From sequence record SRR20825019_49: a stretch of 44,666 nt of DNA; one strand, given 5' to 3'. Shown piece by piece: positions 8,400 to 34,915 of this stretch (positions are counted from its first letter, which is position 1; each line of letters starts with the position of its first letter). Position numbers and translations under genes: made by a program. A model generated the notes under the pieces. It was not told the DNA's origin. It saw only the letters and a program-made list of their open reading frames with translations, and ran no database searches.

Positions 8400-8432
8400 G
8401 TTAAGTTTGTATTAAGCTTATGCCGTAATAGT
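8400..8432 (+). promoter_or_regulatory. Putative PmrA/QseB-type response-regulator box upstream of TolC gene
   Basis: GTTAAG-TTTGT-ATTAAG (11-bp period), then 10 nt and AATAGT (-10-like). Confidence 0.55.
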
Positions 8433-8462
8433 AGCTGTTTGGCGTGATAGTAAGGGGCCTGC

Positions 8463-9692
8463 ATGTCTTATTTAAAACACCTGATTGCCAGTCTTCTGGT
8501 CTCTCATTCCTTCGTTGTCAGCGCAGGCGGGTTGCCAGCAGACTACTCTGACGGGATTACTCTGAGCAGTGTCACCGAGCAGGTCTATCAGCGCTTGCCG
8601 GGGAAACAGGCAGAAAGCAAGTTTGGCCAGTTGCAGCAAGCTAATGATGAGTTGGGCAATGCCTTATTTGCTGAGCCTGCCACTGCCAATCTTGACCATT
8701 TTAATGATGCTATCGGTAGTGGAGATGGTATGCAGGAATGGGAGGGCAGTGTTGATATGCCGATCTGGCTGCCCGGGCAGCAGCAGGCTCAACAGGCTCT
8801 TTCCGGCAAAATTATCGCGCAGTTGCCGGCTTACCAAAGCCGACTTCGTCTCCAGGCTAGCGGCGAAGTCAGGGAACTCGTCTGGCAGGTGAAGCTGGCC
8901 GAAGCTCGGCTTGAACAGGCCGAACAAGTCTGGGAAACAGCAAAAAAGCTGGAACAGGATGTACAATCCAGAGTGAAAGCCGGCGATCTCGCCGCCAATG
9001 AAGCGTTACTGGCCAGCAGCAACACAATGGAAGCGCACAGCAAGATGATTGCGGCCGAATCCCAACTATCGCAGCAGCTTAAGATTTATCAATTGATTAC
9101 CGGCTTGCAATCCTTGCCGGCGGAAGTGGCTGAAGCATCCCAGGAACAGACTGTTGTGCCCGCCCAGCATCCTGTACTTTTAATGCAGGATCAGGTCATC
9201 GCCAGGCTGCAGGCGGAAATGGGTATAGTCCGCTTTGAAGGTAGCGTCAATCCCAGTGTTTCTGTCGGTGTCCGTCGTGAACGCGGTGATGACAACGAGT
9301 CCTTTAATAACAGCCTTGGCATTGGTTTCAGTATGCCTCTTGATAATCAACGATATAGTGAGGTGGCGGTCGCTGAGAGTGCGGCTGCACTGGCCGATGC
9401 CCAAGTGGCCAGACAGGAACTGGAACGTCAGTTAAACAAGGACCTGCTGGCCAGCCAGGAGACCTTATCTGCCACGCGTAAACAGTTGGACCTGGCGGCT
9501 AAACAGAACCAGACCACCAATGAGTATTACCAGATGCAAAAACGCGCTTTTGATCTGGGTGAAATCAACCTGATTGATTTATTAAGAAGCCAGGTGCTGG
9601 CTAATGAGAGTCGCAGTCGTAAACGCGAAATCGAGGTTCAGATAGAGCAGCAAAAAGCGCTGGTAAATCAGGCGCTCGGCATCATTTTATAA
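8463..9692 (+). CDS. TolC/CzcC-like outer membrane efflux protein
   Basis: Signal peptide; two OEP repeats (..VKAGDL..; ..FDLGEINLIDLL..); helical coiled coils. Confidence 0.85.
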   Translation: MSYLKHLIASLLVSHSFVVSAGGLPADYSDGITLSSVTEQVYQRLPGKQAESKFGQLQQANDELGNALFAEPATANLDHFNDAIGSGDGMQEWEGSVDMPIWLPGQQQAQQALSGKIIAQLPAYQSRLRLQASGEVRELVWQVKLAEARLEQAEQVWETAKKLEQDVQSRVKAGDLAANEALLASSNTMEAHSKMIAAESQLSQQLKIYQLITGLQSLPAEVAEASQEQTVVPAQHPVLLMQDQVIARLQAEMGIVRFEGSVNPSVSVGVRRERGDDNESFNNSLGIGFSMPLDNQRYSEVAVAESAAALADAQVARQELERQLNKDLLASQETLSATRKQLDLAAKQNQTTNEYYQMQKRAFDLGEINLIDLLRSQVLANESRSRKREIEVQIEQQKALVNQALGIIL

Positions 9693-9714: not shown

Positions 9715-9747
9715 CTTAATTTTTCGTTAAGACTACCACGCTAATCT
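9715..9747 (+). promoter_or_regulatory. Putative PmrA/QseB-type box and -10 upstream of the hemolysin/HDO operon
   Basis: CTTAAT-TTTTC-GTTAAG, then 10 nt and TAATCT. Confidence 0.6.
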
Positions 9748-9778: not shown

Positions 9779-10486
9779 ATGGAAGCAGTTTCGTTCAGTA
9801 ATCTCATGCCCGAAAACGGGCATTTTCAACGGCATGCAGCCAACTGGGGTTTGTTACCCCTCTATTCACTGAAGCTGCATACACCGCATACCCCTGACAG
9901 GGCAGCTGTAGAGCAGTTTATCTACCAGCGCTTCGCTCACCAGTATGGCGCTGATATCAGTGCCTTTCTTCCCATGCTGCTGTCTGCCGCTGATGATAAG
10001 GGAATCACCGCTGCACTGGGTTTCCAGCCTGCTTCTTTACATCGCTTGTTTCTAGAGTTTTATCTGGATTGCGATATCGAAACCACTCTGGGACTGGTGA
10101 CCCAGAGTGACGTCGAACGCCAACGAATCGTTGAAATTGGTAATCTCGCCTCTGGCAGACAACGTGCGACACAATCCTTGTTTCTATTACTGGCGCAGAT
10201 CCTTTATGCAGCAGGTTATGAATGGGTGGTGTTTACTGCTAACAGCGCGGTTAAAAGCTGGCTGGCAAGATTACAGATCCCTGCGTTTGTGCTTAACGAG
10301 GCTGACCCGAAACGTCTGCCTGACAAAGGCGCTAACTGGGGAACTTACTATGACGACAAACCTGTTGTTCTAGCTGCCAATATTGATCGTAGTTTCAGTA
10401 CGATGAATAGCCATCCACTGATGGCCCATCTACGCAATCAATATGCTGACGAAATCGGTCATTTTTCTGCACGGTTACCGCAATGA
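9779..10486 (+). CDS. 'Thermostable hemolysin' (delta-VPH) family protein, probably an acyltransferase-fold enzyme
   Basis: E.FI..RF...YGA.I..FLP.LL, LFLE.YLD..IE, IVEIGNLAS, WVVFTA, ADP.RL....NWGTYY...P.V motifs. Confidence 0.85.
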   Translation: MEAVSFSNLMPENGHFQRHAANWGLLPLYSLKLHTPHTPDRAAVEQFIYQRFAHQYGADISAFLPMLLSAADDKGITAALGFQPASLHRLFLEFYLDCDIETTLGLVTQSDVERQRIVEIGNLASGRQRATQSLFLLLAQILYAAGYEWVVFTANSAVKSWLARLQIPAFVLNEADPKRLPDKGANWGTYYDDKPVVLAANIDRSFSTMNSHPLMAHLRNQYADEIGHFSARLPQ

Positions 10487-11931
10487 GCCTGATCGTCCAG
10501 CAATTACGTGAATTGGCTGCTGCCAAGCCTGAGGCTATGGCTGTCACGGACAAACAGCAGCGTCTGACCCGGGTCGAATTGATAGGCGCGGTGACGCTGC
10601 TTGCTGAGAGCCTCAAGCCTTATCAGAGTCAGGTAGTGGCTTTGCTTGCAGACAATCAAATCGATTGGGTAGTGACTGATTTGGCTTGCCTTGAAGCCGG
10701 GGTGATATTGCTGCCTCTACCGGCCTTTTTCAATGCCACGCAACAGCAGCATGCGATAGCGCAAAGTGGTGCAGTAGCAGTGATTAGTTCCGCTGATAAC
10801 TTTCAGGGGGAACCAATCACAAGCCACCTCAGGATTAAGTCTATCCAGCCATCGGCACCGGCAAATTTACCTGACAATACCGTTAAAATCACTTTCACCT
10901 CCGGCTCTACCGGTCAACCCAAAGGGGTATGCCTGAGCGAGTCAAATCAATTCAATGTCGCGAACGCGCTGTTGCAACGCACCGGACTGAAAAGTCCGCG
11001 GCATCTTTGCGTTTTGCCGCTACCAACTTTACTGGAGAACATCGCGGGTGTGTATGCGCCACTGCTCAGCGGTGGTGAAGTCATTGTGCTGCCAGCCAAT
11101 GATCTTGGCTTTAACGGTGCCAGTGAGTTTGATGTGCACAAACTGGCCGCTGTGCTGGAGAGCGTTCAGCCTGACAGCCTGATTTTATTGCCTGGCATCT
11201 TGTCTGCATTAGTTGCCTTTATCAAGCATGGCTGGCAGGCACCAGACAGTTTGAAATTTGTTGCTGTCGGTGGCAGTCGGGTCGGTAGTGGTTTACTGGA
11301 AGCCGCTGAAGCAGTCAATCTCCCTGTGTATGAGGGGTATGGCCTGTCGGAGTGCAGCTCTGTCGTCAGTCTCAACAGCCCGAATGACAATCAGCAGGGT
11401 AGTGCGGGTATGCCCCTGCCGCATATTGAAGTCTCCATTGAAGACGAGGAAATATGCGTGTCCGGCAATGCCTTCCTGGGTTATGTCAACGAGCCTGAAA
11501 GCTGGTATCAGAAACAGGTCAAAACCGGTGATATCGGCGCAATTGATGACGCAGGATTTCTGCATATTCTGGGGCGGCGCAAAAACCTGCTGATCAACAG
11601 TTTCGGACGCAATATCAACCCGGAATGGATAGAAAGTGAAATCCTCGCCAACCCGGCCATTGCTCAATGCGTGGTCTACGGTGATGCGCGTCCCTTTTGC
11701 ATTGCACTTATTTATCCCCGAACGGCGGTAAGCGATGTGCTTATCAACAACTGGCTAAGCAGTGTTAATCAGGGGTTGCCGGTCTATGCCCGCATCAAAC
11801 ACTGGCTGCGACTTCCACAGCCACTGAGTCAGACCAGCGGCACACTAACAGCGAATGGCAAACCTGTACGGGAACAGATAGAGCGACTCTATCAGACAGA
11901 TATCAATCAAATTTTTAAGGAGCAGGCTTGA
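10483..11931 (+). CDS. AMP-binding (adenylate-forming, long-chain acyl-CoA synthetase-like) enzyme
   Basis: TFTSGSTGQPKG P-loop, YEGYGLSE, KTGD, GRRKNL; ATGA overlap with upstream gene. Confidence 0.92.
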   Translation: MSLIVQQLRELAAAKPEAMAVTDKQQRLTRVELIGAVTLLAESLKPYQSQVVALLADNQIDWVVTDLACLEAGVILLPLPAFFNATQQQHAIAQSGAVAVISSADNFQGEPITSHLRIKSIQPSAPANLPDNTVKITFTSGSTGQPKGVCLSESNQFNVANALLQRTGLKSPRHLCVLPLPTLLENIAGVYAPLLSGGEVIVLPANDLGFNGASEFDVHKLAAVLESVQPDSLILLPGILSALVAFIKHGWQAPDSLKFVAVGGSRVGSGLLEAAEAVNLPVYEGYGLSECSSVVSLNSPNDNQQGSAGMPLPHIEVSIEDEEICVSGNAFLGYVNEPESWYQKQVKTGDIGAIDDAGFLHILGRRKNLLINSFGRNINPEWIESEILANPAIAQCVVYGDARPFCIALIYPRTAVSDVLINNWLSSVNQGLPVYARIKHWLRLPQPLSQTSGTLTANGKPVREQIERLYQTDINQIFKEQA

Positions 11932-12600
11932 ATGGCTTTTTTTGATGTTTTACAGACAGAAACCGCTGAGGCAAGAGCGCAGCTTTTCAGCGCCCCCATT
12001 TTTGAGCGGGCCTTTAACGGTGATATCGATCACGCGCTTTATATCGATTTTCTGACACAGGCCTATCACCATGTGAAACATACAGTGCCTTTGTTAATGA
12101 CCGTGGGCGGCCGCTTGCCTGAAAGCAAGGAATGGCTGCGAACGGCGGTGGCAGAGTACATTGAAGAGGAAGTCGGTCATCAGGAATGGATATTAAATGA
12201 TATTGCCGCCTGTGGTGGGGATAAAGAGGCGGTCAGAGACAGTCACCCCAATCTGCATACCGAGCTGATGGTCGCTTACGCCTATGACCTTGCATCACGT
12301 GTTAACCCATTGGGCTTCTTTGGCATGGTGCATGTGCTGGAGGGCACCAGTATTACCTCTGCCGATCGGGCTGCGGAGTCGATCCAAAATGCATTAAACC
12401 TGCCTAATCAGGCTTTCAGTTATCTACGTTCTCATGGCGCGTTGGATCAGGACCATGTCAAATTCTTTGAGAGTCTGATGAACCGGATTTCTGAGCCAGA
12501 TGAACAGGCACTTATCATTCGTTCGGCCAGGATTTTCTATTACCTCTACGGAAATATCTTCCGTAGTCTCACCGGAGATAAAATGCCATGTACAGCATGA
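11932..12600 (+). CDS. Iron-containing redox enzyme (heme-oxygenase-like diiron oxidase; TenA/PqqC fold)
   Basis: EYIEEEVGHQEWILND, HVLEG and SHGALDQDH ligand pattern. Confidence 0.85.
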   Translation: MAFFDVLQTETAEARAQLFSAPIFERAFNGDIDHALYIDFLTQAYHHVKHTVPLLMTVGGRLPESKEWLRTAVAEYIEEEVGHQEWILNDIAACGGDKEAVRDSHPNLHTELMVAYAYDLASRVNPLGFFGMVHVLEGTSITSADRAAESIQNALNLPNQAFSYLRSHGALDQDHVKFFESLMNRISEPDEQALIIRSARIFYYLYGNIFRSLTGDKMPCTA

Positions 12601-13373
12601 AAGACAAAACCATCGTGTTGACAGGAGCAGCCGGCGGAATTGGCCGGGCTGTTGCCGAATTGCTCGACACTGTGGGAGCAACCCTGGTGCTGACTGATAT
12701 CAACGGCAATCAGCTGGAAGTGCTCAATCATAGTCTCGGCGACAGGCACTATACCGTAGAGGCCGATCTGGCGTCTGCTGAAGGACGCAGCAAGCTCGTT
12801 GACTGCTGTACTGACATGCTGTCGCCGCCGCAAATGCTGATCAATATTGCCGGGATTAATCAGTTTGCCAAGCTCGCTGACTACAGTGATGAACAGCTGA
12901 CAAAGTTAATTAATGTCAATTTGACCAGTCAGATCGCACTTTGCCGGGATTTTTTACCCTTATTCAGCAGATTATCTGCTGCCGCTATTATCAATGTCGG
13001 CTCCATTCTGGGCAGTATCGGTATGCCCGGTTATAGCGTCTACTGTGCAAGCAAGTTCGGACTACGTGGTTTCAGTGAAGCACTGGGCCGGGAATTAATG
13101 GATTCTCCTGTCGAGGTCCGTTATTTCGCTCCCCGAGCCACACAAACAGCTTTGAACGACAGCAGGGTCAATGAGATGAACAAGGCGCTGGGTAATGCGA
13201 TGGACACACCGCAGCGAGTGGCTGCCGAGCTGGTCAGTTTTCTGAAGAACCATGAGAAGCGCGGCTATCTGGGGTGGCCAGAGAAATTATTTGTGCGCAT
13301 CAATAGCCTGTTTCCGTCACTGGTCGATAAATCCTTTCGAAAACAGCTTGGCGTGATTAAACGCTATCTATGA
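12588..13373 (+). CDS. SDR family oxidoreductase (start may be 12597, ATGA overlap)
   Basis: TGAAGGIG Rossmann motif, NIAG, GS, YCASK catalytic motif. Confidence 0.93.
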   Translation: MYSMKDKTIVLTGAAGGIGRAVAELLDTVGATLVLTDINGNQLEVLNHSLGDRHYTVEADLASAEGRSKLVDCCTDMLSPPQMLINIAGINQFAKLADYSDEQLTKLINVNLTSQIALCRDFLPLFSRLSAAAIINVGSILGSIGMPGYSVYCASKFGLRGFSEALGRELMDSPVEVRYFAPRATQTALNDSRVNEMNKALGNAMDTPQRVAAELVSFLKNHEKRGYLGWPEKLFVRINSLFPSLVDKSFRKQLGVIKRYL

Positions 13374-13383
13374 GGAACAAACC

Positions 13384-14043
13384 ATGAAAAAACGCTTTGT
13401 GATTCTAGCACTTATGATCAGCTTTTCGGCTGTCGCCGATGTGATGAAACAGGTGGCAGAGGTTCAACATAATTGGGCGGAGGCCAACTATGAGCTTAAG
13501 GACAAAGCGCAGAAAACACGCTTTGAAGCATTGCTGAATGAGTCAGATGCCGTTGTGAAGGACAACCCTGATTCCGCCGAGGCCCTGATCTGGCGTGGCA
13601 TCGTACAATCGAGCTATGCCGGGATTAAAGGTGGACTGGGTGCGCTGGGGCTGGCCAAAGCCGCCAGAGCGGACTTTGAACAGGCGATGAAAATCGATGA
13701 CAAGGCACTTGATGGTTCGGCCTACACCAGTCTGGGCACGCTCTATTTTAAAGTCCCTGGCTGGCCATTGGGCTTTGGCGATAATGACAAAGCCGAAGCC
13801 TTGCTCAAAAAAGCCTTGAGCATTAACCCCGATGGGATTGATAGTAATTATTTTTATGGGGTTTTTCTGCTTGATCAGAGACAATACAAGCAGGCTGAAC
13901 AGTATTTACTGAAAGCCCAGCAGGCACCGGCACGTCCCAGTCGTCCTCTGGCTGATAAAGGGCGACAGAAGGAGATTGCCGAGGCCTTACAGCAAGTTCG
14001 TTATCAACTGAGAACAGATCAACATGCAGGTATTGCTGATTGA
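13384..14043 (+). CDS. Exported tetratricopeptide-repeat protein
   Basis: Sec signal (..FSAVA-D); TPR helices (LGTLYFKVPGWPLGFGD..KAE.LL.KAL.INPDGIDSNYFYG). Confidence 0.85.
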   Translation: MKKRFVILALMISFSAVADVMKQVAEVQHNWAEANYELKDKAQKTRFEALLNESDAVVKDNPDSAEALIWRGIVQSSYAGIKGGLGALGLAKAARADFEQAMKIDDKALDGSAYTSLGTLYFKVPGWPLGFGDNDKAEALLKKALSINPDGIDSNYFYGVFLLDQRQYKQAEQYLLKAQQAPARPSRPLADKGRQKEIAEALQQVRYQLRTDQHAGIAD

Positions 14044-14683
14044 GGACGACGCCTCTCTGGCGGAGGGACTGAAACGTTCACTTAAACGAGAAGGCTTTAT
14101 TGTTAACCATCTGGTGCAGGGAAAACAGGGCGTCAGCGCCGTTTCGACCTCGCCACCGGACATCGTTGTGCTGGATCTGGGGTTACCGGATATGGATGGG
14201 CAGGACGTGCTGAAAGCGATACGCAAGCTGGATGCAGCGCTACCGGTGTTGATTCTGACAGCCAGAGCCTCGCTGGAAGACAAAGTGGCGGGCCTGGATA
14301 ACGGGGCTGATGATTATCTGGCTAAACCTTTCGAAACGGATGAGTTACTGGCCCGTTTACGGGTGTTTGAGCGTCGTCTGAGCAGTTTCAAACATGCCGG
14401 ACTGACGATTGGTGAGGTTACGATGGACAGTAAAGCCCTGACCGTAACGGTGTCGGGTGCAGAGATTGAATTGTCACGCCGTGAATTTATGCTGCTTAAA
14501 ACGCTGATGGAGAATGCCGGTCGAGTACAGACCCGTGACAGCCTGGAGAGCAAGCTCTACAGCTGGGGAGAAGAGATCGCCAGTAACGCCATCGAGGTGC
14601 ATATCCATCATCTGCGCAAGAAGTTGCCTGATCAATTTATCAAGACTGTTCGTGGTGTCGGCTACACCATCAAACCGGCATGA
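14024..14683 (+). CDS. OmpR-family response regulator (QseB/PmrA-like)
   Basis: LLIEDD, LDLGLP, LTAR, GADDYLAKPF, SNAIEVHIHHLRKKL, TVRGVGY. Confidence 0.95.
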   Translation: MQVLLIEDDASLAEGLKRSLKREGFIVNHLVQGKQGVSAVSTSPPDIVVLDLGLPDMDGQDVLKAIRKLDAALPVLILTARASLEDKVAGLDNGADDYLAKPFETDELLARLRVFERRLSSFKHAGLTIGEVTMDSKALTVTVSGAEIELSRREFMLLKTLMENAGRVQTRDSLESKLYSWGEEIASNAIEVHIHHLRKKLPDQFIKTVRGVGYTIKPA

Positions 14684-16002
14684 AATCGATTCGTCTTTTC
14701 CTGCTGTTATCGCTGCTGGCCACGATCACTTTGGTGAACTTTGTGGCCTTGTTACACGGCTATCAGTCCAGTATGGAGAAAGCCCAGACTCTGTTTGACT
14801 CCAGGCTGGAAAGCACGGCAAGACTGATTGCTTCAGCGAACTCCGAACAGGCGATGCAGCAGGGAATTGCCGAACAACAGACACCATTCACTTATTTTCA
14901 AATCTGGGACAGTGGCGGCAAACAATTACTCACCCGATCGGGAAATGCACCGGCATTTGTCACTGGTGAGTTGAGTGAAGGTTTCCATGAAATCAATTTC
15001 GACAGCTATCGCTGGCGCAACTATGTTTATCGTGATGAGCACCTCAATCGCTGGATTGTAGTTGCTGAGCGTATTGATATTCGCTACGTCCTGGCCGAAG
15101 AAGTTGTTCTGGAATCCTTGCTTCCGATTGTGATTGCAATACCGGTTGCAGCATTGATTATCTGGCTGGCGGTTGGCGTCGGTCTTAACCCGTTGCGTCA
15201 GTTTGCTGCTCAGGTGATGGCCAAACGCGCTGATGATCTAAGCCCGATTCAACTTGAAAGGGTACCTCATGAACTGGTCACAGTAGTGTCCAATACCAAT
15301 GCTTTATTAGGCAGGCTGGATCACGCTTTCCAGCGGGAACAGCGCTTTGCTTCAGATGCGGCACATGAGCTGAGAACGCCCATCAGTGTGCTCAATGTAC
15401 ACTTGCACAATCTGAAACAACGCCTGGGCGAGGATGATGAAGACATCACTTTTCTCAAGGCAGGCATTGAACGGATGGGACATCTGGTTGAACAGATTCT
15501 GGCGCTTTACCGTACTTCACCGGATCAAGCCCTGGCGCGTTTTGAAACGGTTGACCTGTATAAACTGGCGCAAACGGTCATTGCCGGCGATTTTCTCAAT
15601 TTTGAGCGCAAGCAACAGCATATTTCTCTGGATGGGCAGAGTGCCTGCTTGTCCGGTAATCGATTTGCACTGGAAACCTTGTTGCAGAACTTATTGAGCA
15701 ACGCTGATAAGTACACACCGCCAGAGGGAGAAGTTCATGTCATTGTCAAACCGCTTCAGGGTGGCGTACAGCTCATTGTCGAAGATTCCGGTCCGGGTAT
15801 TCCGGCCGATCAATACGAACGTGTGTTTGAGCGTTTTTACCGCTTTCAGGGTGACAGGCATGCTAGTGGTGAGCTGGGCTGCGGGCTGGGCCTTACCATA
15901 GTCAGCCATATTGTCGAGCTGCACCATGCCAGTATCCGACTGGGTCCTTCATCCCTGGGACAGGGGCTCGCTGTGAACATTATTTTCCCCGGAGAAATTT
16001 AA
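14680..16002 (+). CDS. Sensor histidine kinase (QseC/PmrB-like)
   Basis: Two TMs, HAMP, DAAHELRTP H-box, NLLSNADKY, EDSGPGIP, GCGLGL. Confidence 0.95.
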   Translation: MKSIRLFLLLSLLATITLVNFVALLHGYQSSMEKAQTLFDSRLESTARLIASANSEQAMQQGIAEQQTPFTYFQIWDSGGKQLLTRSGNAPAFVTGELSEGFHEINFDSYRWRNYVYRDEHLNRWIVVAERIDIRYVLAEEVVLESLLPIVIAIPVAALIIWLAVGVGLNPLRQFAAQVMAKRADDLSPIQLERVPHELVTVVSNTNALLGRLDHAFQREQRFASDAAHELRTPISVLNVHLHNLKQRLGEDDEDITFLKAGIERMGHLVEQILALYRTSPDQALARFETVDLYKLAQTVIAGDFLNFERKQQHISLDGQSACLSGNRFALETLLQNLLSNADKYTPPEGEVHVIVKPLQGGVQLIVEDSGPGIPADQYERVFERFYRFQGDRHASGELGCGLGLTIVSHIVELHHASIRLGPSSLGQGLAVNIIFPGEI

Positions 16003-16003
16003 A

Positions 16004-16327
16004 TTGAAACAATGGCTTGCTTTTCTCACTTTATGTTCGCTCTCGACTGTCGCGTTAGCGGGACCGCCAGTGATAGAAATCGAGATTAAAGATCATTTGT
16101 TCTTCCCGGATGAGGTTCGAATTCCAGCCGACACCAAGGTGAAATTTCTGGTGAAAAATCTTGATCCGACAGCAGAAGAATTCGAAAGCTACGAACTCAA
16201 CCGGGAAAAAGTCATCGCCGGTCACAGCGAGGCCATTATTTTTATCGGACCGTTGCCAGCGGGGGAGTATCCCTTTTTTGGCGAATTCTTTCCTAAAACT
16301 GCCCAGGGCAAAGTGATCGCGGAGTAA
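16004..16327 (+). CDS. Periplasmic cupredoxin-domain protein (EfeO-N/FtrB-like)
   Basis: Signal peptide; F.P....PA, EEFES.ELNREKVI, GEYPFFGEF. Confidence 0.85.
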   Translation: MKQWLAFLTLCSLSTVALAGPPVIEIEIKDHLFFPDEVRIPADTKVKFLVKNLDPTAEEFESYELNREKVIAGHSEAIIFIGPLPAGEYPFFGEFFPKTAQGKVIAE

Positions 16328-17842: not shown

Positions 17843-18964
17843 ATGCATGAGTTAATGCCACGCGAGACATCATTTTCAGTGAAGCGCATGACGCGCATCC
17901 TGCTTTCCATCCTGTTAGTGTTGATAGGGTCACCGGTTTTTTCAGAACCGCTTATTCTCAATCAGCTTGAGCAGGATAATCTGGGTTTGAAACTGGCGTC
18001 GGCGAAAGCAATGTCAATCACCAGCAGTCCGTCATTTCCTGCTAATGTGATCATTCCCAATAATGCCCAAAATAGCGTGCACAGTCCTCAGGAAGGTATC
18101 GTGCTGCACCTTTTCAAAGCTGTGGGTGACACGGTCAGCCGGGGAGAGCTTGTTGCCGTTGTGAACAGCTTGAGCCTTATTACGGTGCAACGTGATTATC
18201 TCCAGTCTCACGGCAAACTCAGACAGATTGAAATTGAGTGGCGCCGGCTTAAACAACTTTATGCCGAAAGTATAGTGGCTGAAAGGCGCTATCAGGAAAT
18301 AGCATCGCAGCGGGAATTGGCGATTAACGAATATCAAGCGCTGGCACAGCAGTTGAAAATGATGGGCCTGTCCAAGGCGCAGCTCGATGAACTGCGTTCC
18401 AGTGGTGAATATACCAGTGAGTTACAGCTACATTCGGAAAAAGATGGTGTTGTCATGCAGCAACAGGTCACGACCGGGCAGCGGGTGACTGCGATGGACA
18501 GCCTGTATATGATTGCCGACCTCTCAACGCTGTGGCTGGAGATCCATGTTCCACTCGACATTGCCAGGCAGATTAATCCTGGTAAACAGGCCAGTGTGGA
18601 CGGACGCGATGTCAATGGGAAAGTCACGGCTGTGGGGCGAGAAGTGCATGAAGTTGACCGTGGTGTCATGGTCAGAGTCCTGGTTGAGGACAATACGGAT
18701 TTGCTGACACCCGGTGAATTTGTTCAGGTTAAGTTTTATGAGTCTGCGTCAGTACTGCGTTACGAAATACCATTATCTGCGGTGCTTAACCTGGAAGGCA
18801 CTCCCCATATTTTCGTTAAAACACCATCAGGCTTCAGCCCGGTACCGGTTGTCGTATACAGCCAACGTGACGACACAGCCATAATCGAAGTGAATGAAAA
18901 CGGTCTGGATAAAGTCGTGGTAGCTGGGGTCGCGGCCCTCAAAGCCGCCTGGAACAACAGGTAA
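17843..18964 (+). CDS. CzcB/CusB-like heavy-metal RND adaptor (start may be 17888)
   Basis: G.V...F..VGD.V..GE lipoyl motif, IADLSTLWLE, L.PGEFV; directly upstream of CzcA-like gene. Confidence 0.85.
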   Translation: MHELMPRETSFSVKRMTRILLSILLVLIGSPVFSEPLILNQLEQDNLGLKLASAKAMSITSSPSFPANVIIPNNAQNSVHSPQEGIVLHLFKAVGDTVSRGELVAVVNSLSLITVQRDYLQSHGKLRQIEIEWRRLKQLYAESIVAERRYQEIASQRELAINEYQALAQQLKMMGLSKAQLDELRSSGEYTSELQLHSEKDGVVMQQQVTTGQRVTAMDSLYMIADLSTLWLEIHVPLDIARQINPGKQASVDGRDVNGKVTAVGREVHEVDRGVMVRVLVEDNTDLLTPGEFVQVKFYESASVLRYEIPLSAVLNLEGTPHIFVKTPSGFSPVPVVVYSQRDDTAIIEVNENGLDKVVVAGVAALKAAWNNR

Positions 18965-18969
18965 GTCTG

Positions 18970-21900
18970 ATGATAGATACCATTATCCGTCTTTGTCTGA
19001 GTCAGCGCCTGTTAGTGATGCTTTCTGTTATCGGCTTGTTGGGTCTGGGGTGGCAGGCTTTCAAACAAACTCCGATCGATGCATTCCCTGATGTTTCTAC
19101 CACCCAGGTTAAGGTGATTCTGAAAGCGCCGGGGATGACGCCTGAAGAGGTCGAGAGCCGGATTACTGCATTGGTCGAAGTCGAAATGCTGGGGATCCCA
19201 CGTCAACAAATGCTGCGGTCAATAGTGAAATACGGTTTAACTGACATCACCGTGGACTTTGAAGAGGGAACCGATATTTACTGGGCAAGACAGCAGGTTG
19301 CTGAGCGATTGTCTGCAGTTCGAGATGCCTTGCCTGACGATGTCATGGGTGGGCTGGCGCCCATGACCACACCACTGGGCGAAATGTTCATGTTTACCGT
19401 GAACAGCGAAACGCTGAGCCTGATGGAAAAACGTGACTTGCTGGACTGGGTGATTCGACCGGCTTTAAGAAGCGTCGAAGGTGTTGCAGATGTGAATGCG
19501 CTGGGTGGCCGGGTTAAAACCTTTGAAGTGGTGCCTGATCTGGACCACATGGCTGCACTTGATATCTCGCTGTTCGATCTGCAGGCGGCATTGACTGAAA
19601 ACAATCGCAATGATGGATCCGGTCGTATTGATAAAGGTGAAGAGGTTCTGTTGGTCAGAGCTGAAGGCAACCTCTCAACTATCGAAGATATTGAGCAACT
19701 GGTGGTTAAAGCTGATCGTCTTGAACCTGTCACTATCGGTCAGGTTGCGACTGTTCAACTGGGTACATTGACCCGTTACGGCGCGGTCAGTGCCAATGGG
19801 ACTGGTGAGGTTGTTCAGGGCCTGGTGCTGGGTTTACGAGGGGCCAATGCTAAAACCGTTATTTCGGGAATAGAACAGCGTATTAAGGAAATCCAGCCGG
19901 GTCTGCCTGACGACGTCACACTGCAGGTATTTTATAACCGGGGTGAACTGGTCTCTGATGCCATCCATAGTGTCTCCAAGGCCTTATTGGAAGCGGTCGT
20001 TCTGGTTATGGTGTTTCTTCTCCTGTTTCTGGGGGACTTTCGTGCCGCCATCACCGTGGCCTTGGTTCTGCCGCTGGCAGCGATGGTGACATTTATCATG
20101 ATGAGGCAGTTCGGTCTGTCGGCCAATTTGATGAGCTTGGGTGGCCTGACGATAGCGATAGGGATGCTGGTCGACGCCGCTGTCGTGGTGGTTGAGAATG
20201 TGGTGTCACAACTGGCCGATGAAAAACGACGCAAGATGTTGCCACGACTGCATTTAATTTACCGTGCGGTTCGCGATGTTTCCGTTCCGGTCATCTCGGG
20301 GATTGTGATTATCATCATTGTTTTCCTACCGCTACTGACCTTGCAGGGACTAGAAGGCAAGCTGTTTGCGCCTGTCGCATTGACGATTGTTTTCGCCCTG
20401 GCTGGATCATTAATCCTGGCCCTGACTGTCATTCCGGTGCTGGCATCGTTTTTACTGGGACAGGTCAGTCATAAAGAGCCCTGGTTGCCGGCGTTGCTTA
20501 AACGGCTTTATCAGCCGGCACTGGAATGGTCACTGAATCATGCCGGCATCGTTGTTTCTGTCGCGCTGACTCTACTCTTGCTGACGGTGATACTGTTCAA
20601 TCAGGTCGGTAAGACCTTTATGCCAGTGATGGATGAGGGGGATCTGATTGTGCAGCTGGAGAAACTGCCCTCTATTACACTGGATCAGTCCGTAGAAACA
20701 GATCGTCGTGTTCAACAGACTTTACTGCAACAGGTGCCGGATATTCAGGGTATTGTTGCCAGAACCGGGGCGGATGAATTGGGGCTTGATCCGATGGGGC
20801 TCAATGAAACCGATATGTTTATGGTGCTAAAGCCCCGTTCTGAGTGGCAAAGCGATACTAAGGAAGATCTGAAAGATCGCATTCGGACCGTCATGGATGA
20901 ATTTCCGGGGCTTAATTATGGCTTCACTCAACCTATTGAGATGCGGGTATCTGAAATGCTCACTGGCGTCAGAGGGGATCTGGCGATTAAGGTCTTTGGA
21001 GACGAAGGCGACAAACTGAGTCGACTCAGTACTGAAATCAGCGATATTGTGCAAGACATTCCCGGTGCTGAGGATGTCATACTCAGCCAAACCGATGGGG
21101 CGCAGTATTTTCAGCTTGAACTGGATCCTTTAAAAGTCGGACGGCTGGGCCTGACTGTTGAAGCATTATTACCACAACTCAGAATGCTGATAGAAGGCGC
21201 TCAGGTTGGTACCATTTATCAGGCTGCCAGACGCTACCCACTGGTAATCAAAGGCAATCAGAGTGGAAGGAGCAGCACGGAAGCGTTTGCCAATGCCAGA
21301 CTCATAGTCAATGGCGGTCAGGAAATTCGCGTGTCAGACATCGCCACACTGAAACAGGTCGAGGGCCCTGTTTCCATCAAGCGTGAGCTTGGGAAACGGA
21401 TGGCCGTGGTAGTGGTTAATGTGTCTGACCGAGATCTGGTGAGCTTTGTGGAGGAGGCGCAAATGCTGGTTTCAGAACAACTTGACTTGCCCAGTGGCTA
21501 CAGCCTGTCCTGGGGAGGGCAGTTCGAAAACCAACAGCGTGCCTCGAAACGTTTATTACTGGTAGTCCCTGTCGCCATGGTCATGATATTTCTGCTGCTT
21601 TTTTCAACATTTCAATCATTACGCCAAGCTGTGCTGGTGATGACAAATGTGCCTTTTGCCCTGGTCGGTGGTGTCAGCGCATTGTGGCTCACGGGTGAAT
21701 ATTTGTCTGTCCCGGCGTCGGTCGGTTTTATTGCGCTGCTGGGGATTGCTGTGCTTAATGGCGTCGTGATGGTGAGTTTTTTCAACCAATTGCTGGCACA
21801 GGGGCTGGCCATGAAAGAGGTGGTTAGACAAGGGGCAATACGGCGTCTACGTCCGGTCATGATGACCGCGACAATAGCCGCTTTTGGTCTGGTACCATTG

Positions 21901-22038
21901 CTTTTTGCCACTGGTCCCGGTTCAGAAATTCAGCGGCCCCTGGCTATTGTGGTTATCGGTGGCCTGGTTAGCGCCACACTGCTGACTTTGATTCTATTGC
22001 CGGTGTTGTTTGAACGTTATGGCAGGAAAACGCTATGA
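18970..22038 (+). CDS. CusA/CzcA family heavy-metal efflux RND permease
   Basis: PIDAFPDVS, SANLMSLGGL, GMLVDAAVVVVEN, FTQPIEMR, GSEIQRPLA. Confidence 0.95.
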   Translation: MIDTIIRLCLSQRLLVMLSVIGLLGLGWQAFKQTPIDAFPDVSTTQVKVILKAPGMTPEEVESRITALVEVEMLGIPRQQMLRSIVKYGLTDITVDFEEGTDIYWARQQVAERLSAVRDALPDDVMGGLAPMTTPLGEMFMFTVNSETLSLMEKRDLLDWVIRPALRSVEGVADVNALGGRVKTFEVVPDLDHMAALDISLFDLQAALTENNRNDGSGRIDKGEEVLLVRAEGNLSTIEDIEQLVVKADRLEPVTIGQVATVQLGTLTRYGAVSANGTGEVVQGLVLGLRGANAKTVISGIEQRIKEIQPGLPDDVTLQVFYNRGELVSDAIHSVSKALLEAVVLVMVFLLLFLGDFRAAITVALVLPLAAMVTFIMMRQFGLSANLMSLGGLTIAIGMLVDAAVVVVENVVSQLADEKRRKMLPRLHLIYRAVRDVSVPVISGIVIIIIVFLPLLTLQGLEGKLFAPVALTIVFALAGSLILALTVIPVLASFLLGQVSHKEPWLPALLKRLYQPALEWSLNHAGIVVSVALTLLLLTVILFNQVGKTFMPVMDEGDLIVQLEKLPSITLDQSVETDRRVQQTLLQQVPDIQGIVARTGADELGLDPMGLNETDMFMVLKPRSEWQSDTKEDLKDRIRTVMDEFPGLNYGFTQPIEMRVSEMLTGVRGDLAIKVFGDEGDKLSRLSTEISDIVQDIPGAEDVILSQTDGAQYFQLELDPLKVGRLGLTVEALLPQLRMLIEGAQVGTIYQAARRYPLVIKGNQSGRSSTEAFANARLIVNGGQEIRVSDIATLKQVEGPVSIKRELGKRMAVVVVNVSDRDLVSFVEEAQMLVSEQLDLPSGYSLSWGGQFENQQRASKRLLLVVPVAMVMIFLLLFSTFQSLRQAVLVMTNVPFALVGGVSALWLTGEYLSVPASVGFIALLGIAVLNGVVMVSFFNQLLAQGLAMKEVVRQGAIRRLRPVMMTATIAAFGLVPLLFATGPGSEIQRPLAIVVIGGLVSATLLTLILLPVLFERYGRKTL

Positions 22039-22343
22039 AACAGTTGCTTGGCCTTATCATATTGCCAGAATTTGCCGAAACTTTAACAGACTGGTTATTG
22101 ATGCGGGAAGACATCACCGGCTTTACCTCCAGTCTTGTCGCAGGGCATGGTTCACAGCACCCGATGAGCATCAATGAACAGGTTCAGGGTTGGCGAAAGC
22201 AGCATCTATACTGGGTTGAAGTTAAAGCAGATATCAGCTCTCAACTACTTAGGGAACTACAGCAGGATCATCCTGGAGTGGATATTCATTATTGGCTGCT
22301 GCCACTGGCTGCAGAAGGCCACCTTGGAGAACTGGCACAATAA
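22035..22343 (+). CDS. DUF3240 family (PII-like) protein
   Basis: DWLL....GFTS....GHG......EQVQG, IHYWLLP; ATGA overlap with czcA-like gene. Confidence 0.8.
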   Translation: MKQLLGLIILPEFAETLTDWLLMREDITGFTSSLVAGHGSQHPMSINEQVQGWRKQHLYWVEVKADISSQLLRELQQDHPGVDIHYWLLPLAAEGHLGELAQ

Positions 22344-23009
22344 TTACTGCAGCGCCTGCTCCTTCATGCGTCTTTCCAGATCATTCCACAATGACAGTTT
22401 GGAAGCTTCACCGACCCGCTGACCTTCACCACGGGATTTGGCAAGCCACAAACCGGTACCGTTAAAGCTGTAGACCGGGACAAGATCATTCCGGCGACTG
22501 GCCGGTTTAATATCGGTAATCAGGTTGTCCAGTACCAGCGGCACTGATCGTTTGGTTTCGAAGTAGGTCAGCACCATATGCGCCTGATCGATTTCAATCG
22601 CCTTGACGTAAGTGATTCTGAGCTTGTCTTCATCGACACCCAGTTCCTTCAGTGTGAAATATTTGGCTATCGAGTAATCTTCGCAGTCACCGGCACCGAT
22701 GGAGAGCATTTCCAGTGGCGTTGCCCAGTAATCTTTCTTCTGCCACAGGGCAATATCATCAATAAACTGCACATTGGCATTGAAGAATTGATTGACCAGT
22801 TCCAGCTTTTCCTTTTCCGATAAGTCGTGGTTAGCGGGATTTTCTACCAACTCACGCCACCCCTCAACCCGCTTGCGGGCGAACTTGTTGTACTGGCTTT
22901 CAATTCTGGCCAGTACTTCATCGCTGATATTCAGCTTGGCAATGCCAGGCAGCGCAAACAGCAGCGAAGTCAGCAGCAGCGTAATCAGAGCATGACGGTA
23001 AAGTCGCAT
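22344..23009 (-). CDS. lapG: LapG-like periplasmic transglutaminase-like cysteine protease
   Basis: DYWATPLE...GAGDCEDYSIAKY, AHMVL, VLDNL (Cys-His-Asp triad). Confidence 0.9.
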   Translation of the reverse strand: MRLYRHALITLLLTSLLFALPGIAKLNISDEVLARIESQYNKFARKRVEGWRELVENPANHDLSEKEKLELVNQFFNANVQFIDDIALWQKKDYWATPLEMLSIGAGDCEDYSIAKYFTLKELGVDEDKLRITYVKAIEIDQAHMVLTYFETKRSVPLVLDNLITDIKPASRRNDLVPVYSFNGTGLWLAKSRGEGQRVGEASKLSLWNDLERRMKEQALQ

Positions 23010-23029
23010 TCAGTCCCCGGCGGTCAGGT

Positions 23030-24928
23030 TTAGCGGCTGATACCAAACAGACCGGCCTGTTTGACAATGTCAAAGTCATCATCTGCTTCTACTGACTCAG
23101 CGAGCACTTTGATTTCAATCAGGCTGGACACTTCCTGAATCAGTTCCAGGAAGTCCGGTTTGCTGGCATTGCCTCTGATGTTATGCGTGAGGTCGCGGGC
23201 CAGACGGATATAGTCGATATGCAGTTCACGCAGCATGTCGACCGGAATAATGTCGGAAGAATAGCGTTTCAGCAGGACGGTGGCACCCAGCGATTCAACA
23301 AAGGTGCTGAAGCTGTCAAAGGCGGCAATATCCTTTGCTGCGGCGTAAGCGGTGACCGAAAAAGCAAGCAGATGACTGGACAGGCTGCTTTGTTCCAGTC
23401 GGGCCCTGAGCCAGCGCTGGAAGCCCAGCGAAGATATAGAAGCCATTGACAGGTTAATCGTCACCGGGGTGGTGATATTGTCGGCCTCCATTTTCAGGAT
23501 GATCTTGTTGACGATGAGTTTATCCAGATCTTCGGCCAGTCCAAATTCCTGTGCGACCGAGAAGAAGGTCCCGATTGACAGCGGGTTACCACTTTCATCC
23601 CTGACCACAGTGAAGGCTTCCTGCATCACTTTAATAGGGATATCCGTGTTGTAGTTATAGGCTTCTGCAGTGAAGGTGATTTCCGGTGTGTTGTTGTCGA
23701 TGGCATTGACAATCGCTTCGCGCCAGTCTTGTTCGCTCATTGAGCTAATGCTGTCCTGTTTGATGAAGAAAGCATTCTGACCAATATTCCTTGCCTGTTC
23801 ATAGGCTTCGATTAAGGCCGGCATCAGACGATCGAATTCGCTGGTCTTATCGAAATACACGATACCGGTATGCATGATGTCCTCGACGGCATATTGTTGT
23901 CCTAACTCATTGATATCGTGCTTGAGTCGTTCAGCCAAAGCCGTGACCGAATTCACATCAGCCTGCGGACTTATCAGGGCAAATTCAGCGCCGTAAAGGC
24001 GGTAGGCATCAGCGTCACTTGATACGGCTTTTTGCAGCAGGTTGGCAAAAGACTGCAGTAACTTATCCGCTTTCTGATTACCCATTTCTTTACTGATGGC
24101 AGCCAGATCATCAAATTTGAAATACAGCACGTAGCCACTCATCCCAGAGGACAAGGCTCGTTTTACGTCATCATTGAATGTGGCTTGATTCAGCAAGTGA
24201 GTGAGCGGATCCCGCTTGAGGCTGTCACTAAGGGAATCCAGCCGGTTATTCAGACGGGCAATGGTATCGCCGATTTTGCGGGACATGCCGTTCATGGAGT
24301 TGGCAACCTGACGGACTTCAGTCGTCCAGGGCAGTTTGCTGATCGTGGTGAAATTACCGCCGGAGATTTCATTGGCCTGTCTCTGGATGGCTTTTAATGG
24401 TTGCAGGGTCAGACGCAGTACCAGAATCACCAATATAAAAGCGGCGATAAATATCATCAGCGAGTAGAGTAGGGTTTCTTTGGCCTGTTCATAAAGCTTC
24501 AGATAACCATAGGCCGGATTACTGCTGACATAGAGTGTGCCGGAAATATTCCATCCGGAACTGATCTCAGACTGGGCGGTTGCCGTCTTGATAGGCAGCA
24601 ACTCGATCAACCAGTCTGGTACGCCTTCCATCTGTACCGGGTTGGTTAACACTACCAGGTTCTCACCATCGACATTTTCCAGCCGCATTTCCTTGTAATA
24701 GCCCATATCGAAGATGGCACTCATCATCGTCAGCAGAATGGGATCGCTTTCATCATCCATATGCGGACTCAACGACAGACCGAGAGAGGTGGCGGTGTCC
24801 TGTACGTGAACTTCTGATTCCACTTCCAGGTAGTTACGGATATTGCTCATGCTGAGATAAAAGCTGACCGAGAAAACAATCAGGAAAATCAGACTGATCA
24901 GGATCAGGAGTTGCTTGGACAGAGACAT
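23030..24928 (-). CDS. lapD: LapD-like c-di-GMP receptor (periplasmic domain, HAMP, degenerate GGDEF/EAL)
   Basis: MSLSKQL..., TATSLGLSL, AIFDMGYY; GGDEF degenerate (YGAEF); ATG 24928 with GAGG RBS; adjacent to lapG. Confidence 0.88.
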   Translation of the reverse strand: MSLSKQLLILISLIFLIVFSVSFYLSMSNIRNYLEVESEVHVQDTATSLGLSLSPHMDDESDPILLTMMSAIFDMGYYKEMRLENVDGENLVVLTNPVQMEGVPDWLIELLPIKTATAQSEISSGWNISGTLYVSSNPAYGYLKLYEQAKETLLYSLMIFIAAFILVILVLRLTLQPLKAIQRQANEISGGNFTTISKLPWTTEVRQVANSMNGMSRKIGDTIARLNNRLDSLSDSLKRDPLTHLLNQATFNDDVKRALSSGMSGYVLYFKFDDLAAISKEMGNQKADKLLQSFANLLQKAVSSDADAYRLYGAEFALISPQADVNSVTALAERLKHDINELGQQYAVEDIMHTGIVYFDKTSEFDRLMPALIEAYEQARNIGQNAFFIKQDSISSMSEQDWREAIVNAIDNNTPEITFTAEAYNYNTDIPIKVMQEAFTVVRDESGNPLSIGTFFSVAQEFGLAEDLDKLIVNKIILKMEADNITTPVTINLSMASISSLGFQRWLRARLEQSSLSSHLLAFSVTAYAAAKDIAAFDSFSTFVESLGATVLLKRYSSDIIPVDMLRELHIDYIRLARDLTHNIRGNASKPDFLELIQEVSSLIEIKVLAESVEADDDFDIVKQAGLFGISR

Positions 24929-25136
24929 AATGCGTTCCTCGAAACAGGCCAATGCAGAATTAATTCATTATCTGATAAACCATGGCTATCCTTCTGGTCT
25001 ATCTGTAAATAATGACGAAAACTCCCTAAAGATACGCTGCCGACCGGCATCAGGCAAGGTGATTCCGGCGATGGCCCGGCTTTTGTTTTCAGCGAACCAT
25101 TGCTAGGATCAGTTTTTATCTCTGCAAGGCAAAAAC

Positions 25137-26057: not shown

Positions 26058-26788
26058 TCATCCCAGATAAATCCGGCTTTTTCGATTTCAGCAATCATTA
26101 CGGCCATGGCCTGTTCGACCTGTTGTTCATCACCACGCAGACTGAACAGAATATAGGGCTCATCACCCAGATGAGGCAGGCTGGATAACAGCAGATCCGG
26201 ATAATCATCAACAATCTGGTTCATGGTGTCGAGCAGGTCGGATTCGCGGCCTTTGGTAATGCGAATAATGCGTTCGCTGCGCGGACGCAGATCACGCAAG
26301 TCAGGGTATTCATTATCGAGCAGCCATTCCACCATCGGCCAGGCCATTTCCGGAAAGCCGGGCATGAAATGATGATTATCGACACTGAAACCCGCTACCC
26401 GATTGACGGGATTGGGAATCAGTCTGCAGCCTTCAGGTAGATGGCCCATTAGGATACGGTTGGGGTAGGCGGCCTCGCCAAACTTCTCTTCGATTTCTTT
26501 GACTGCTTGCGGATGAGGCACCAGTGGCACCCCTTTAACCAGCGCGGCGGTTTGACGGGTTCTATCATCCGGTGTGGCACCGATACCGCCAAAACTGAAT
26601 ACCAGATCATTACTGGCCATGGAAAATCGCATGGCGCGTTCCAGATCCGCCGCATCATCGCCAACGATCAGGGTCCAGCTGAGCTCCAGGCCGCGGGCCG
26701 CGAGGACTTCCTGCAGATGTGCAAAATGACGATCCTGTCGTTTACCGCAGAGAATTTCATCGCCGATAATCAAAGCCCCGATTTTCAT
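26036..26788 (-). CDS. CinA-N / molybdopterin-binding domain protein
   Basis: IIGDEIL.G..QD, VGDD, GGIGATPDD.T, PGFP. Confidence 0.88.
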   Translation of the reverse strand: MKIGALIIGDEILCGKRQDRHFAHLQEVLAARGLELSWTLIVGDDAADLERAMRFSMASNDLVFSFGGIGATPDDRTRQTAALVKGVPLVPHPQAVKEIEEKFGEAAYPNRILMGHLPEGCRLIPNPVNRVAGFSVDNHHFMPGFPEMAWPMVEWLLDNEYPDLRDLRPRSERIIRITKGRESDLLDTMNQIVDDYPDLLLSSLPHLGDEPYILFSLRGDEQQVEQAMAVMIAEIEKAGFIWDDQAGGRK

Positions 26789-27186
26789 CCGGATGTTTGC
26801 TCCTGTCTGTTACGCATAAAGTCAGCCGTCTGTACAAATGAGGACATTAATTGTTCAGCGAATAGCGGGTCAAGATCCATCGTTTTCAATGCCTGGGCCA
26901 TGCAATAAAGCCACTGGTCGCGTTCTTCAATACCGATAGAGAAAGGCAAATGTCTTGCGCGCAAACGGGGATGACCGAATTTATCGGTAAATAGTGGCGG
27001 ACCGCCCAGCCAACCGCTTAAAAACATAAACAGTTTTTCTTCACTGCTGTTGATATTCTCCGGGTGTAAACCCCGAATTAATTGGGTCTGCGGGGTGTCA
27101 CACATAATGCGATAGAAAGTCTGACACAGTTGTCTGACACCGGCTTCGCCGCCGATGCGCTCATAGGGAGTTGCAATGTCTGCCAT
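26785..27186 (-). CDS. Group II truncated hemoglobin
   Basis: YERIGG..GV..L...FY, FLSGWLGGP, GHPRLRARHLPF.I...ERDQWL; likely ATG at 27186. Confidence 0.92.
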   Translation of the reverse strand: MADIATPYERIGGEAGVRQLCQTFYRIMCDTPQTQLIRGLHPENINSSEEKLFMFLSGWLGGPPLFTDKFGHPRLRARHLPFSIGIEERDQWLYCMAQALKTMDLDPLFAEQLMSSFVQTADFMRNRQEQTSG

Positions 27187-27539
27187 GGGAATGTTTTTGC
27201 TGAAAAGCGCTAGTTTAACTTGCCTTGTCTGACCAATAAAGCAGCATTTTAGTGCCTGCCAAGACAAAATTTGTCAATAATCAATAATGTGTATTGCACA
27301 GACCTACGCTGACGTAGTTATCTATCTGCGTGCGCAGAGCTTCGCTGTAAGCTCTGAAAAATTCCGCCAGGCTCATTTTTTTCACAATCAGGCATGGGTT
27401 TTCCACCCGCCTGCAAGCCGCTGTTTTCAGGTTGATTGCAGCCAGATAGTCTGCCAAACAAGACAGGACGCGGGTTGCGACGAGTCACTCAGAGCGGGAT
27501 AATAAATAAATTTACCATTTCAAACTAAGGAGAAACTTC

Positions 27540-34613: not shown

Positions 34614-34636
34614 CGCTTTAAATTATTCATCTTAAT

Positions 34637-34668
34637 GCCTGGCTGAGAAATTCAGTCAGGCTTTTTTT
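34637..34668 (+). terminator. Rho-independent terminator
   Basis: GCCTGGCTGA-gaaat-TCAGTCAGGC followed by T7. Confidence 0.88.
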
Positions 34669-34861: not shown

Positions 34862-34915
34862 TAGATTTATGGAAAGAAAAACGAGAAATCGCTTTTGGAG
34901 GTTCGTTTCTATGGT

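Follow-up and report, generated by a model that had tools for sequence, protein, structure and literature searches.

The closest analogy for the five-gene cassette described here, at positions 9779..14043 of sequence record SRR20825019_49 (44,666 nucleotides, hereafter the window), is OxzAB. This system resembles the cassette in the position of its N-acyltransferase gene, right upstream of a fusion between an oxidase and an ATP-dependent activating domain, in being carrier-free and in occurring in aquatic Proteobacteria (bioRxiv 10.1101/2020.06.11.147165). We use OxzAB as a working analogy and not as a homologue: OxzB is reported to combine ThiF and flavin nitroreductase domains, neither of which was found in the gene run of the window, whereas the cassette encodes an ANL adenylating ligase and a heme-oxygenase-like dimetal oxidase (HDO) or, in relatives, a TauD-family enzyme, plus a short-chain dehydrogenase/reductase (SDR), a predicted periplasmic carrier with tetratricopeptide repeats (TPR) and an adjoining two-component system. 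The cassette would be a variant of N-acyltransferase-centred pathways with a different, putative enzyme set. We give slightly better than an even chance to the reading that the operon encodes a carrier-protein-free pathway to an oxidised amphipathic N-acyl amide, which would be shuttled by the TPR protein. Folds, motifs, gene order, fusions, oxidase exchange and operator were all obtained computationally.

The first gene belongs to a family annotated as thermostable hemolysin. ChoA of Bacteroidales, the commendamide enzyme, shows how an N-acyltransferase comes to bear such a name, as its lipid product lyses cells (PMC5643525). ChoA belongs to a different family and lacks ligase and oxidase partners as far as described; purified ChoA was not lytic, whereas a purified PF12261 protein of Vibrio fluvialis, delta-VFH, was reported to be. 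The Vibrio delta-VPH/Dth/delta-VFH region (VP1729-VP1735; VCA1111, VCA1110) shares the Pfam family and, going by annotation, the gene set of the cassette, but was published as a haemolysin/virulence or beta-oxidation cluster, unlike the acyl-amide pathway proposed here. Clusters of this kind have also been described in Pseudoalteromonas, where they were read as virulence genes (PMC6262041), in islands of Methylophilaceae (PMC10872708), in networks of V. parahaemolyticus (PMC10469919) and as the dth region (PMC12208996). Neither the mib1 cluster nor a mention of VCA1107 proved related to the cassette. In agreement with an earlier note on this DNA, which knew of no characterised product, we found no acyltransferase role or product for the cassette in the full-text literature covered; this consisted mostly of titles and abstract beginnings, without subscription journals or supplements, and the domain pair or the cluster may have entries in the CO-ED dataset and MboA Fig. 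S2.

Two of the other proteins have described counterparts. With the HDO superfamily (UndA, BesC, CADD, MboA) the cassette enzyme shares a predicted ligand set with three histidines and three carboxylates (3H/3C) and, as reported for MboA, it sits in a small, here putatively amide-forming cluster (PMC13108848, PMC13185094). It represents an uncharacterised subfamily with the unassigned 3DDE as nearest structure, and differs in its fusion to an ANL ligase and its interchangeability with a TauD enzyme. The TPR protein shares fold and pocket/lid motif with BstC and the T-components of TPAT transporters (7T1S, 8G52/8G53, 3U64; PMC10942540), but has no lipobox, and the BstA/BstB or TRAP partners are not conserved.

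The cassette and its conservation

The five open reading frames (ORFs) lie on the plus strand within the limits first drawn for the cassette; the genome is Methylophaga-like, and the closest named relatives are from Methylophaga.

9779..10486, plus strand: PF12261 T_hemolysin (delta-VPH/Dth family; E 1.5e-54), 235 aa, predicted cytoplasmic N-acyltransferase
10483..11931, plus strand: ANL adenylating enzyme, stand-alone, from a subfamily specific to the cassette, 482 aa, PF00501 and PF23562
11932..12600, plus strand: HDO, 222 aa, PF14518
12588..13373, plus strand: classical SDR, NAD(P)-dependent reductase/dehydrogenase, 261 aa; PRK09072 equivalog, 326 bits against a cut-off of 238
13384..14043, plus strand: exported protein with TPR domains, BstC/TatT(TPAT) type, a predicted carrier in the periplasm, 219 aa; BstC E 7e-8

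Overlapping or abutting genes had been claimed throughout, which holds for three of the four junctions: hemolysin and ligase overlap by 4 nt, ligase and HDO abut, and HDO and SDR overlap by 13 nt (4 nt if the start at this junction is the ATG at 12597), but a 10-nt gap separates SDR and TPR genes. Past the TPR gene, which overlaps a response regulator gene by 20 nt, the run continues on the same strand with a sensor kinase, a cupredoxin, FTR1, an exported protein and a CzcBA-like pair.

We compared the best 80 of 103 relatives from one genome scan (13 of them Methylophaga), which had been picked with the pattern [IV]VEIGNLAS, a choice that biases the set. The ligase gene directly followed the PF12261 gene in all 79 loci with room for it. 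Where 3.8 kb of downstream sequence was present (65 loci), an iron oxidase and an SDR were always encoded and the TPR protein in 62. Gene order was kept across Proteobacteria and other phyla, and the clustering of the cassette genes is far beyond chance. Among 56 plasmid records with a PF12261 gene, many of them near-copies from Streptomyces, 51 had an oxidase gene no more than 4 kb away; this was an HDO in 24 and a TauD-type enzyme in 27, mostly from Streptomyces, and never both.

The first gene encodes a predicted N-acyltransferase

Structure prediction for the PF12261 protein gave a confident model (AlphaFold2, alignment of 150 sequences, mean pLDDT 91.6) with N-acyl-homoserine lactone (AHL) synthases and FeeM as its best matches. 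Foldseek returned only such proteins down to rank 12 (TofI, MesI, BjaI, LasI and FeeM best; top E 2e-7), and the same held for the five best rows of a VIA structural scan of 48,161 chains, with LasI at Z 15.4 (rmsd 3.3, 167 residues aligned), TofI at 15.3, RpaI at 15.1 and FeeM at 14.6 (rmsd 3.2, 170 aligned). The best structures (PDB 2G0B, 1RO5, 3P2H, 6WN0) thus spanned Z 14.6-15.4, while MesI reached 13.3 and generic members of the GCN5-related N-acetyltransferase (GNAT) superfamily no more than 12.6. Based on these matches to the model, we assign the protein to an N-acyltransferase fold of the FeeM/AHL-synthase branch of the GNAT superfamily. The earlier note had proposed this fold from the motifs VEIGNLAS and VFTA, both of which are present (residues 118-125 and 151-154); E119 of IVEIGNLAS and a WGxY motif were invariant in 150 of 150 homologues. 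ESM features fell into FeeM, AHL-synthase and GNAT clusters, mostly below 0.9 with look-alikes at 0.88-0.90, and are leads only. Pfam places PF12261 in its acetyltransferase clan, which would make the fold call less new.

Against the assignment, and unlike FeeM and LuxI-type enzymes, the protein matched neither PF21926 (FeeM) nor PF00765, with PF12261 as its only family at E <= 0.01, and has LFLExY and WGxYY motifs of its own; identity to the fold matches was only 9-15%, and 9-13% to the FeeM and LuxI-type structures. A profile search of PDB sequences gave chance histone matches only. A predicted complex of acyltransferase and ligase scored 0.00, which says nothing either way, and the lack of long fused PF12261 proteins (525-2000 aa) among 7,998 candidates is weak evidence. 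A further objection is a report that purified recombinant delta-VFH is cytotoxic, binds lipids and occurs in the supernatant (PMC11033176).

This report bears on whether the first gene encodes a true secreted protein cytolysin, with neighbours that are incidental or regulatory. Recombinant delta-VFH bound anionic phospholipids, lysed cells and induced pyroptosis, and cytotoxicity was lower in a double mutant than in the VFH single mutant, but the delta-VFH single mutant was barely affected (PMC11033176); haemolysis by V. cholerae Dth is reported second-hand. We consider a cytolysin very unlikely. All listed Foldseek and VIA matches have the GNAT fold and none is a pore-forming toxin, and the core glutamate is invariant among the PF12261 homologues. 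The absence of a signal peptide, as first noted, was borne out by a hydropathy scan, which found no hydrophobic N-terminus or membrane span (best 10-residue hydropathy 1.10); an N-terminal hydropathy of 2.0 was reached by 3 of 150 PF12261 homologues versus 44 of 60 TPR proteins. The coupling to three enzymes is strict, and the family comprises 2,299 clusters at 50% identity, including methylotrophs and Streptomyces. In the acyltransferase reading, haemolysis by clones of this family would stem at least partly from the lipid product or from membrane binding by the enzyme, and by our own reasoning bound lipid or such membrane binding could also explain the cytotoxicity of delta-VFH. Many genome papers on Vibrio and Aeromonas list the delta-VPH/dth gene among the toxins. 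If it is a pathway-heading acyltransferase, the toxin annotation is wrong for about 2,300 sequence clusters.

A ligase fused repeatedly to its neighbouring oxidase

The second protein carries the ANL motifs (P-loop, YGLSE, TGD and GR) and scored below the cut-offs of all 25 NCBIfam families shown. In an alignment of 90 family members the P-loop lysine was present in 85, and D350 and R365 in all. Ligase and HDO were fused into one protein in 14 of 65 loci, corresponding to at least four changes on the ligase tree, and among 1,041 long HDO-bearing matches all 120 of those listed were ligase-HDO fusions. Such recurrent fusion suggests that the two enzymes act in consecutive steps.

The oxidase was predicted to be a diiron-type HDO, and the PF14518 match together with a complete 3-His/3-carboxylate set is in line with this. 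Profile matches were to 3DDE (E 1e-26), CADD (E 1e-4) and MboA (E 0.03). The predicted ligands, from alignment to CADD and MboA, are E80, H83, E137, H168, D172 and H175; five of them were kept in 75 of 75 rows of the family and H175 in 74, and E79, D90 and H47 were also invariant or nearly so. The predicted 3H/3C set is the majority type among HDOs, versus the 3H/4C set of SznF, and about a dozen HDOs had been validated according to a 2026 review (PMC13108848).

The slot between ligase and SDR is filled either by an HDO or by an unrelated Fe/2-oxoglutarate enzyme of the TauD family. The 65 loci contained 60 HDO and five TauD genes (59 and five by script; the HDO of locus L071 lay just beyond the distance cut and was added). 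Oxidase type switched at least three times on the ligase tree, which was built by a quick method from 90 rows, with one short row dropped and no one-clade test, so that we claim no direction for the swap. That two unrelated Fe/O2 folds occupy the same slot implies that an O2-dependent oxidation is required there; the chemistry they share would be a hydroxylation, a desaturation or an oxidative decarboxylation. Among characterised structures the TauD variant has none that is close (best 9YUT, E 3.5e-12). The cassette HDO comes with partner enzymes, a natural ligase fusion and a natural 2-oxoglutarate dioxygenase replacement, which narrows its chemistry. In the TauD-type gammaproteobacterial loci (L028, L034, L048, L056, L057) the pocket/lid loop of the TPR protein was lost (three loci, one clade) or the protein was absent (two), and carrier and oxidase type may co-vary.

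SDR and TPR protein

The SDR has the conserved motifs TGxxGxG, NxAG, S139 and YxxxK. A role as an MboB-like redox partner of the HDO was ruled out, MboB being a flavin/Fe2S2 reductase. In six loci (e.g. L047, 3531-3905) the SDR and TPR genes are separated by an unnamed 124-aa ORF.

The TPR proteins have a signal-peptide-like N-terminus, and a lipobox was found in none of 60. The model (pLDDT 95.1) matched BstC at VIA Z 19.1 (rmsd 3.8, 195 aligned), TPAT components at 18.7 and 18.6 and TatT at 17.3, with generic TPRs ranking below (Z <=16.4). Since helical repeats score high easily, we take these matches as a likeness and not as proof of a ligand; the sequence also stays below the BstC equivalog (42 bits against a cut-off of 350). 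The most conserved stretch, residues 116-132, aligns (mapping by offset) with residues reported to line the sterol cavity of BstC (PMC10942540). The model suggests a carrier of a hydrophobic ligand, akin to the lipid carriers BstC and TatT, with no partner transporter conserved beside it in the loci compared.

Proposed pathway

In the proposed pathway the first enzyme would take a fatty-acyl group from the acyl-ACP or acyl-CoA pool and attach it to an amino acid or amine, after which the ligase would activate a carboxylate on the N-acyl scaffold at the expense of ATP. The iron oxidase, back-to-back with the ligase, would then carry out an O2-dependent desaturation, hydroxylation or oxidative decarboxylation, and the SDR would contribute one reduction or oxidation. 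The BstC/TatT-like TPR protein would carry the hydrophobic product through the periplasm. A QseB/PmrA-type regulator would drive the operon by way of a box of direct repeats, and the operon would belong to an envelope-stress/metal regulon. We infer every substrate, the step order, the product and its role. By analogy with OxzAB we favour the acyltransferase-first over a ligase-first order, and this order carries about half of the weight given to the pathway.

The run in the window contains no dedicated gene for an acyl or peptidyl carrier protein, as the term carrier-protein-free had implied; a crude carrier-motif scan of the 80 loci gave three matches, all DUF423-like membrane proteins by inspection. 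The earlier note had missed the recurrent ligase-HDO fusion and the TauD-for-HDO swap, the operator box, the BstC/TatT likeness of the TPR protein and the report of a purified cytotoxic Vibrio homologue.

Several observations speak against the pathway. In five of the 56 plasmid records the PF12261 gene had neither oxidase within 4 kb. The Streptomyces and Pantoea modules lack SDR and TPR protein and may make different products. Ligase positions 460 and 182 correspond to the A10 catalytic lysine and the A4 histidine; position 460 was arginine in 73 of 90 rows and lysine in 14, including the window and the Methylophaga ligases, and position 182 was not histidine in any of the 90. A canonical acyl-CoA ligase (FadD/MenE) was rejected on these grounds and on the equivalog cut-offs. 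Because of the A10 arginine and the absent A4 histidine, the ligase chemistry may be non-standard.

Regulation

An operator-like box precedes the cassette, and a second copy lies upstream of an efflux gene; a two-component system follows.

9716..9730, strand not assigned: operator in front of the cassette, a direct repeat TTAA-N7-TTAA with an 11-bp period
8401..9692, plus strand: second operator copy (8401-8415) and outer-membrane efflux factor (8463-9692, PF02321)
14024..14683, plus strand: QseB/PmrA-like response regulator; scores highest with NCBIfam QseB (225 bits) and PmrA (216) without reaching either cut-off
14680..16002, plus strand: QseC/PmrB-like sensor kinase; 2CSK_N, HisKA, HATPase; QseC 201 bits against a cut-off of 475

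Besides these two, the 44.7-kb window has no exact TTAA-N7-TTAA site. The broader form TT[A/C]A-N7-TT[A/C]A preceded the first gene in 61 of 77 loci, compared with a mean of 5.7 (maximum 10) in dinucleotide shuffles and with 5 in a control window; the count is post hoc, as TTAA alone was tested initially and the TTCA variant was found afterwards in the same loci. The box was absent from loci with extracytoplasmic function (ECF) sigma factor, FecR and TonB-receptor genes (L005, L026, L027, L044, L080). A second spacing, TT[A/C]A-N10-TT[A/C]A, was present upstream of the first gene in 17 of 77 loci, with other control spacings at 3-7.

A direct repeat with an 11-bp period is presumably the PmrA/QseB-type consensus, and the box points to the adjacent QseB/PmrA-type regulator as its reader. 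A response regulator followed the cassette in 39 of 58 loci. Wiring to the adjacent two-component system, as had been suggested, is consistent with box and gene adjacency. The label metal-sensing was not substantiated: QseBC and PmrAB are the closest families of regulator and sensor, yet equivalog cut-offs were not reached, and the sensor scored below every NCBIfam cut-off. An acidic HEIEEVYD-type patch occurs in the sensors of many relatives and in none of the Methylophaga sensors. The efflux factor is probably co-regulated with the cassette, judging from its own box; among the loci compared it adjoined the cassette only in Methylophaga. Operator and carrier offer starting points for learning the timing of production and the destination of the product. 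An Rfam scan of the window gave no match, and sigma-70 (8 versus 13.6 in shuffles) and terminator scans (20 versus 13.4) stayed near shuffle level.

The PmrA-type box would also fit an envelope modification, in which an oxidised acyl group is moved to a membrane lipid, lipid A or a protein as an arm of a PmrA-type peptide/metal resistance regulon. GT2, ArnT-like and LAB_N genes, of the lipid-A glycosylation type, adjoin the cassette in several loci, and delta-VFH is reported to bind anionic phospholipids (PMC11033176). We nevertheless regard this reading as unlikely, given the three-gene core found with exporters in clusters of Gram-positive Streptomyces and nearest folds that act on small amines.

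Biosynthetic contexts in other bacteria

On Streptomyces plasmids the PF12261-ligase-TauD module lies inside clusters with type II polyketide synthase (PKS)-like, nitrite-pathway-like or methyltransferase genes and major facilitator superfamily exporters. In Serratia 39006 a TauD-type operon is accompanied by a Bcr/CflA exporter, and its first gene was reported 184-fold up in an rsmA mutant (PMC4046660). These clusters, exporters and the Serratia operon strengthen the biosynthetic interpretation given earlier.

An operon of P. alcaligenes, equated with the cassette by annotation and gene order alone, was induced 38- to 389-fold by fungal exudate, in which a ligase mutant fails; its authors read this as catabolism (PMC8304167), a result that tells against biosynthesis. 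The TPR protein would then capture a fatty acid or antimicrobial from outside, which would be activated, oxidised, reduced and conjugated. TPAT proteins are said to serve uptake (PMC10942540), and a V. cholerae vca1110 mutant had an altered odd-chain fatty-acid profile (PMC12208996). No importer or beta-oxidation gene was conserved in the loci compared, however, and the TauD variants are found together with exporters and within biosynthetic clusters, so that catabolism or detoxification seems to us quite improbable.

A broader proposal, tentative and on balance doubtful, is that PF12261 protein, ANL ligase and iron oxidase form a portable three-enzyme module whose products, oxidised N-acyl amides or heterocycles, would be a new class. 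In it the ligase would cyclise or couple without CoA, HDO and 2-oxoglutarate dioxygenase would have converged on the same oxidation, and in Proteobacteria a BstC-like shuttle would carry the product, which would be an envelope lipid or signal induced by stress. The 'delta-hemolysin virulence gene' of Vibrio and Aeromonas would then mark a metabolite.

Some plasmid loci had further features. The TauD-type module of Streptomyces plasmids L087, L097 and L098 is part of a cluster resembling those for type II PKS, together with cyclases, a cupin, exporters and dTDP-rhamnose genes. In the plasmid of Streptomyces sp. Mg1 (L088, 7334-18336) it is followed by a methyltransferase and a pair of FAD/NAD(P)-binding and cycloisomerase genes, near butyrolactone regulators; we take this pair to resemble the CreE/CreD nitrite pathway. 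A Pantoea plasmid has a TauD-type cassette with an unannotated 299-aa protein (L089, 11067-11966), next to an arn operon; ExxH motifs in this protein suggest a ferritin-like diiron enzyme.

Neighbouring genes

The two-component genes of the window are followed by three further genes.

16004-16327, plus strand: cupredoxin, PF13473
16332-17111, plus strand: FTR1 permease, PF03239
17108-17791, plus strand: exported 227-aa protein, no Pfam or NCBIfam family

The link to an Ftr permease drawn before exists in the window run but is lineage-limited: Ftr/cupredoxin genes followed the cassette in 13 of 58 loci, nine of them Methylophaga. These genes bear on a ligase-first pathway, in which activation of a small or aromatic acid would be followed by its oxidation (N-oxygenation, for instance), its reduction and its coupling to an amine, giving a diffusible metallophore or signal for iron handling or sensor-kinase feedback. 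Cupredoxin/FTR1, VIT1, FecR and TonB-receptor genes recur near the cassette, loci without the two-component system often have ECF, FecR and TonB-receptor genes, and CoA-dependent AHL synthases are among the best fold matches. We still think a ligase-first pathway rather unlikely, as no dedicated uptake system is conserved and the predicted oxidase ligands are 3H/3C and not of the SznF type, though HrmI is a 3H/3C N-oxygenase. Of the products named earlier (metallophore, signal, envelope modification), the metallophore has become less likely because the TPR protein resembles lipid carriers; all three are retained as rivals to the N-acyl amide.

The exported 227-aa protein occurs after cupredoxin and FTR1 in the loci that have it, and its C-terminal phenylalanine suggests an outer-membrane barrel. 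The genes of a CzcCBA-like efflux system lie on both sides of the cassette, with the outer-membrane factor and its operator upstream and the rest at 17843-22343; this downstream part, with an adaptor, DUF3240 and a CusA/CzcA permease that exceeds the TIGR00914 cut-off, was present only in some Methylophaga loci. DUF423 lies beside the two-component genes in 13 loci (e.g. L059, 16422-16796). Further downstream, 22344-24952 and 26785-28121 encode a LapG/LapD-like pair, a truncated globin and a formaldehyde-activating enzyme, ordinary for a methylotroph, and the region 34001-37000 has a G+C content of 0.41-0.43 compared with about 0.50 elsewhere.

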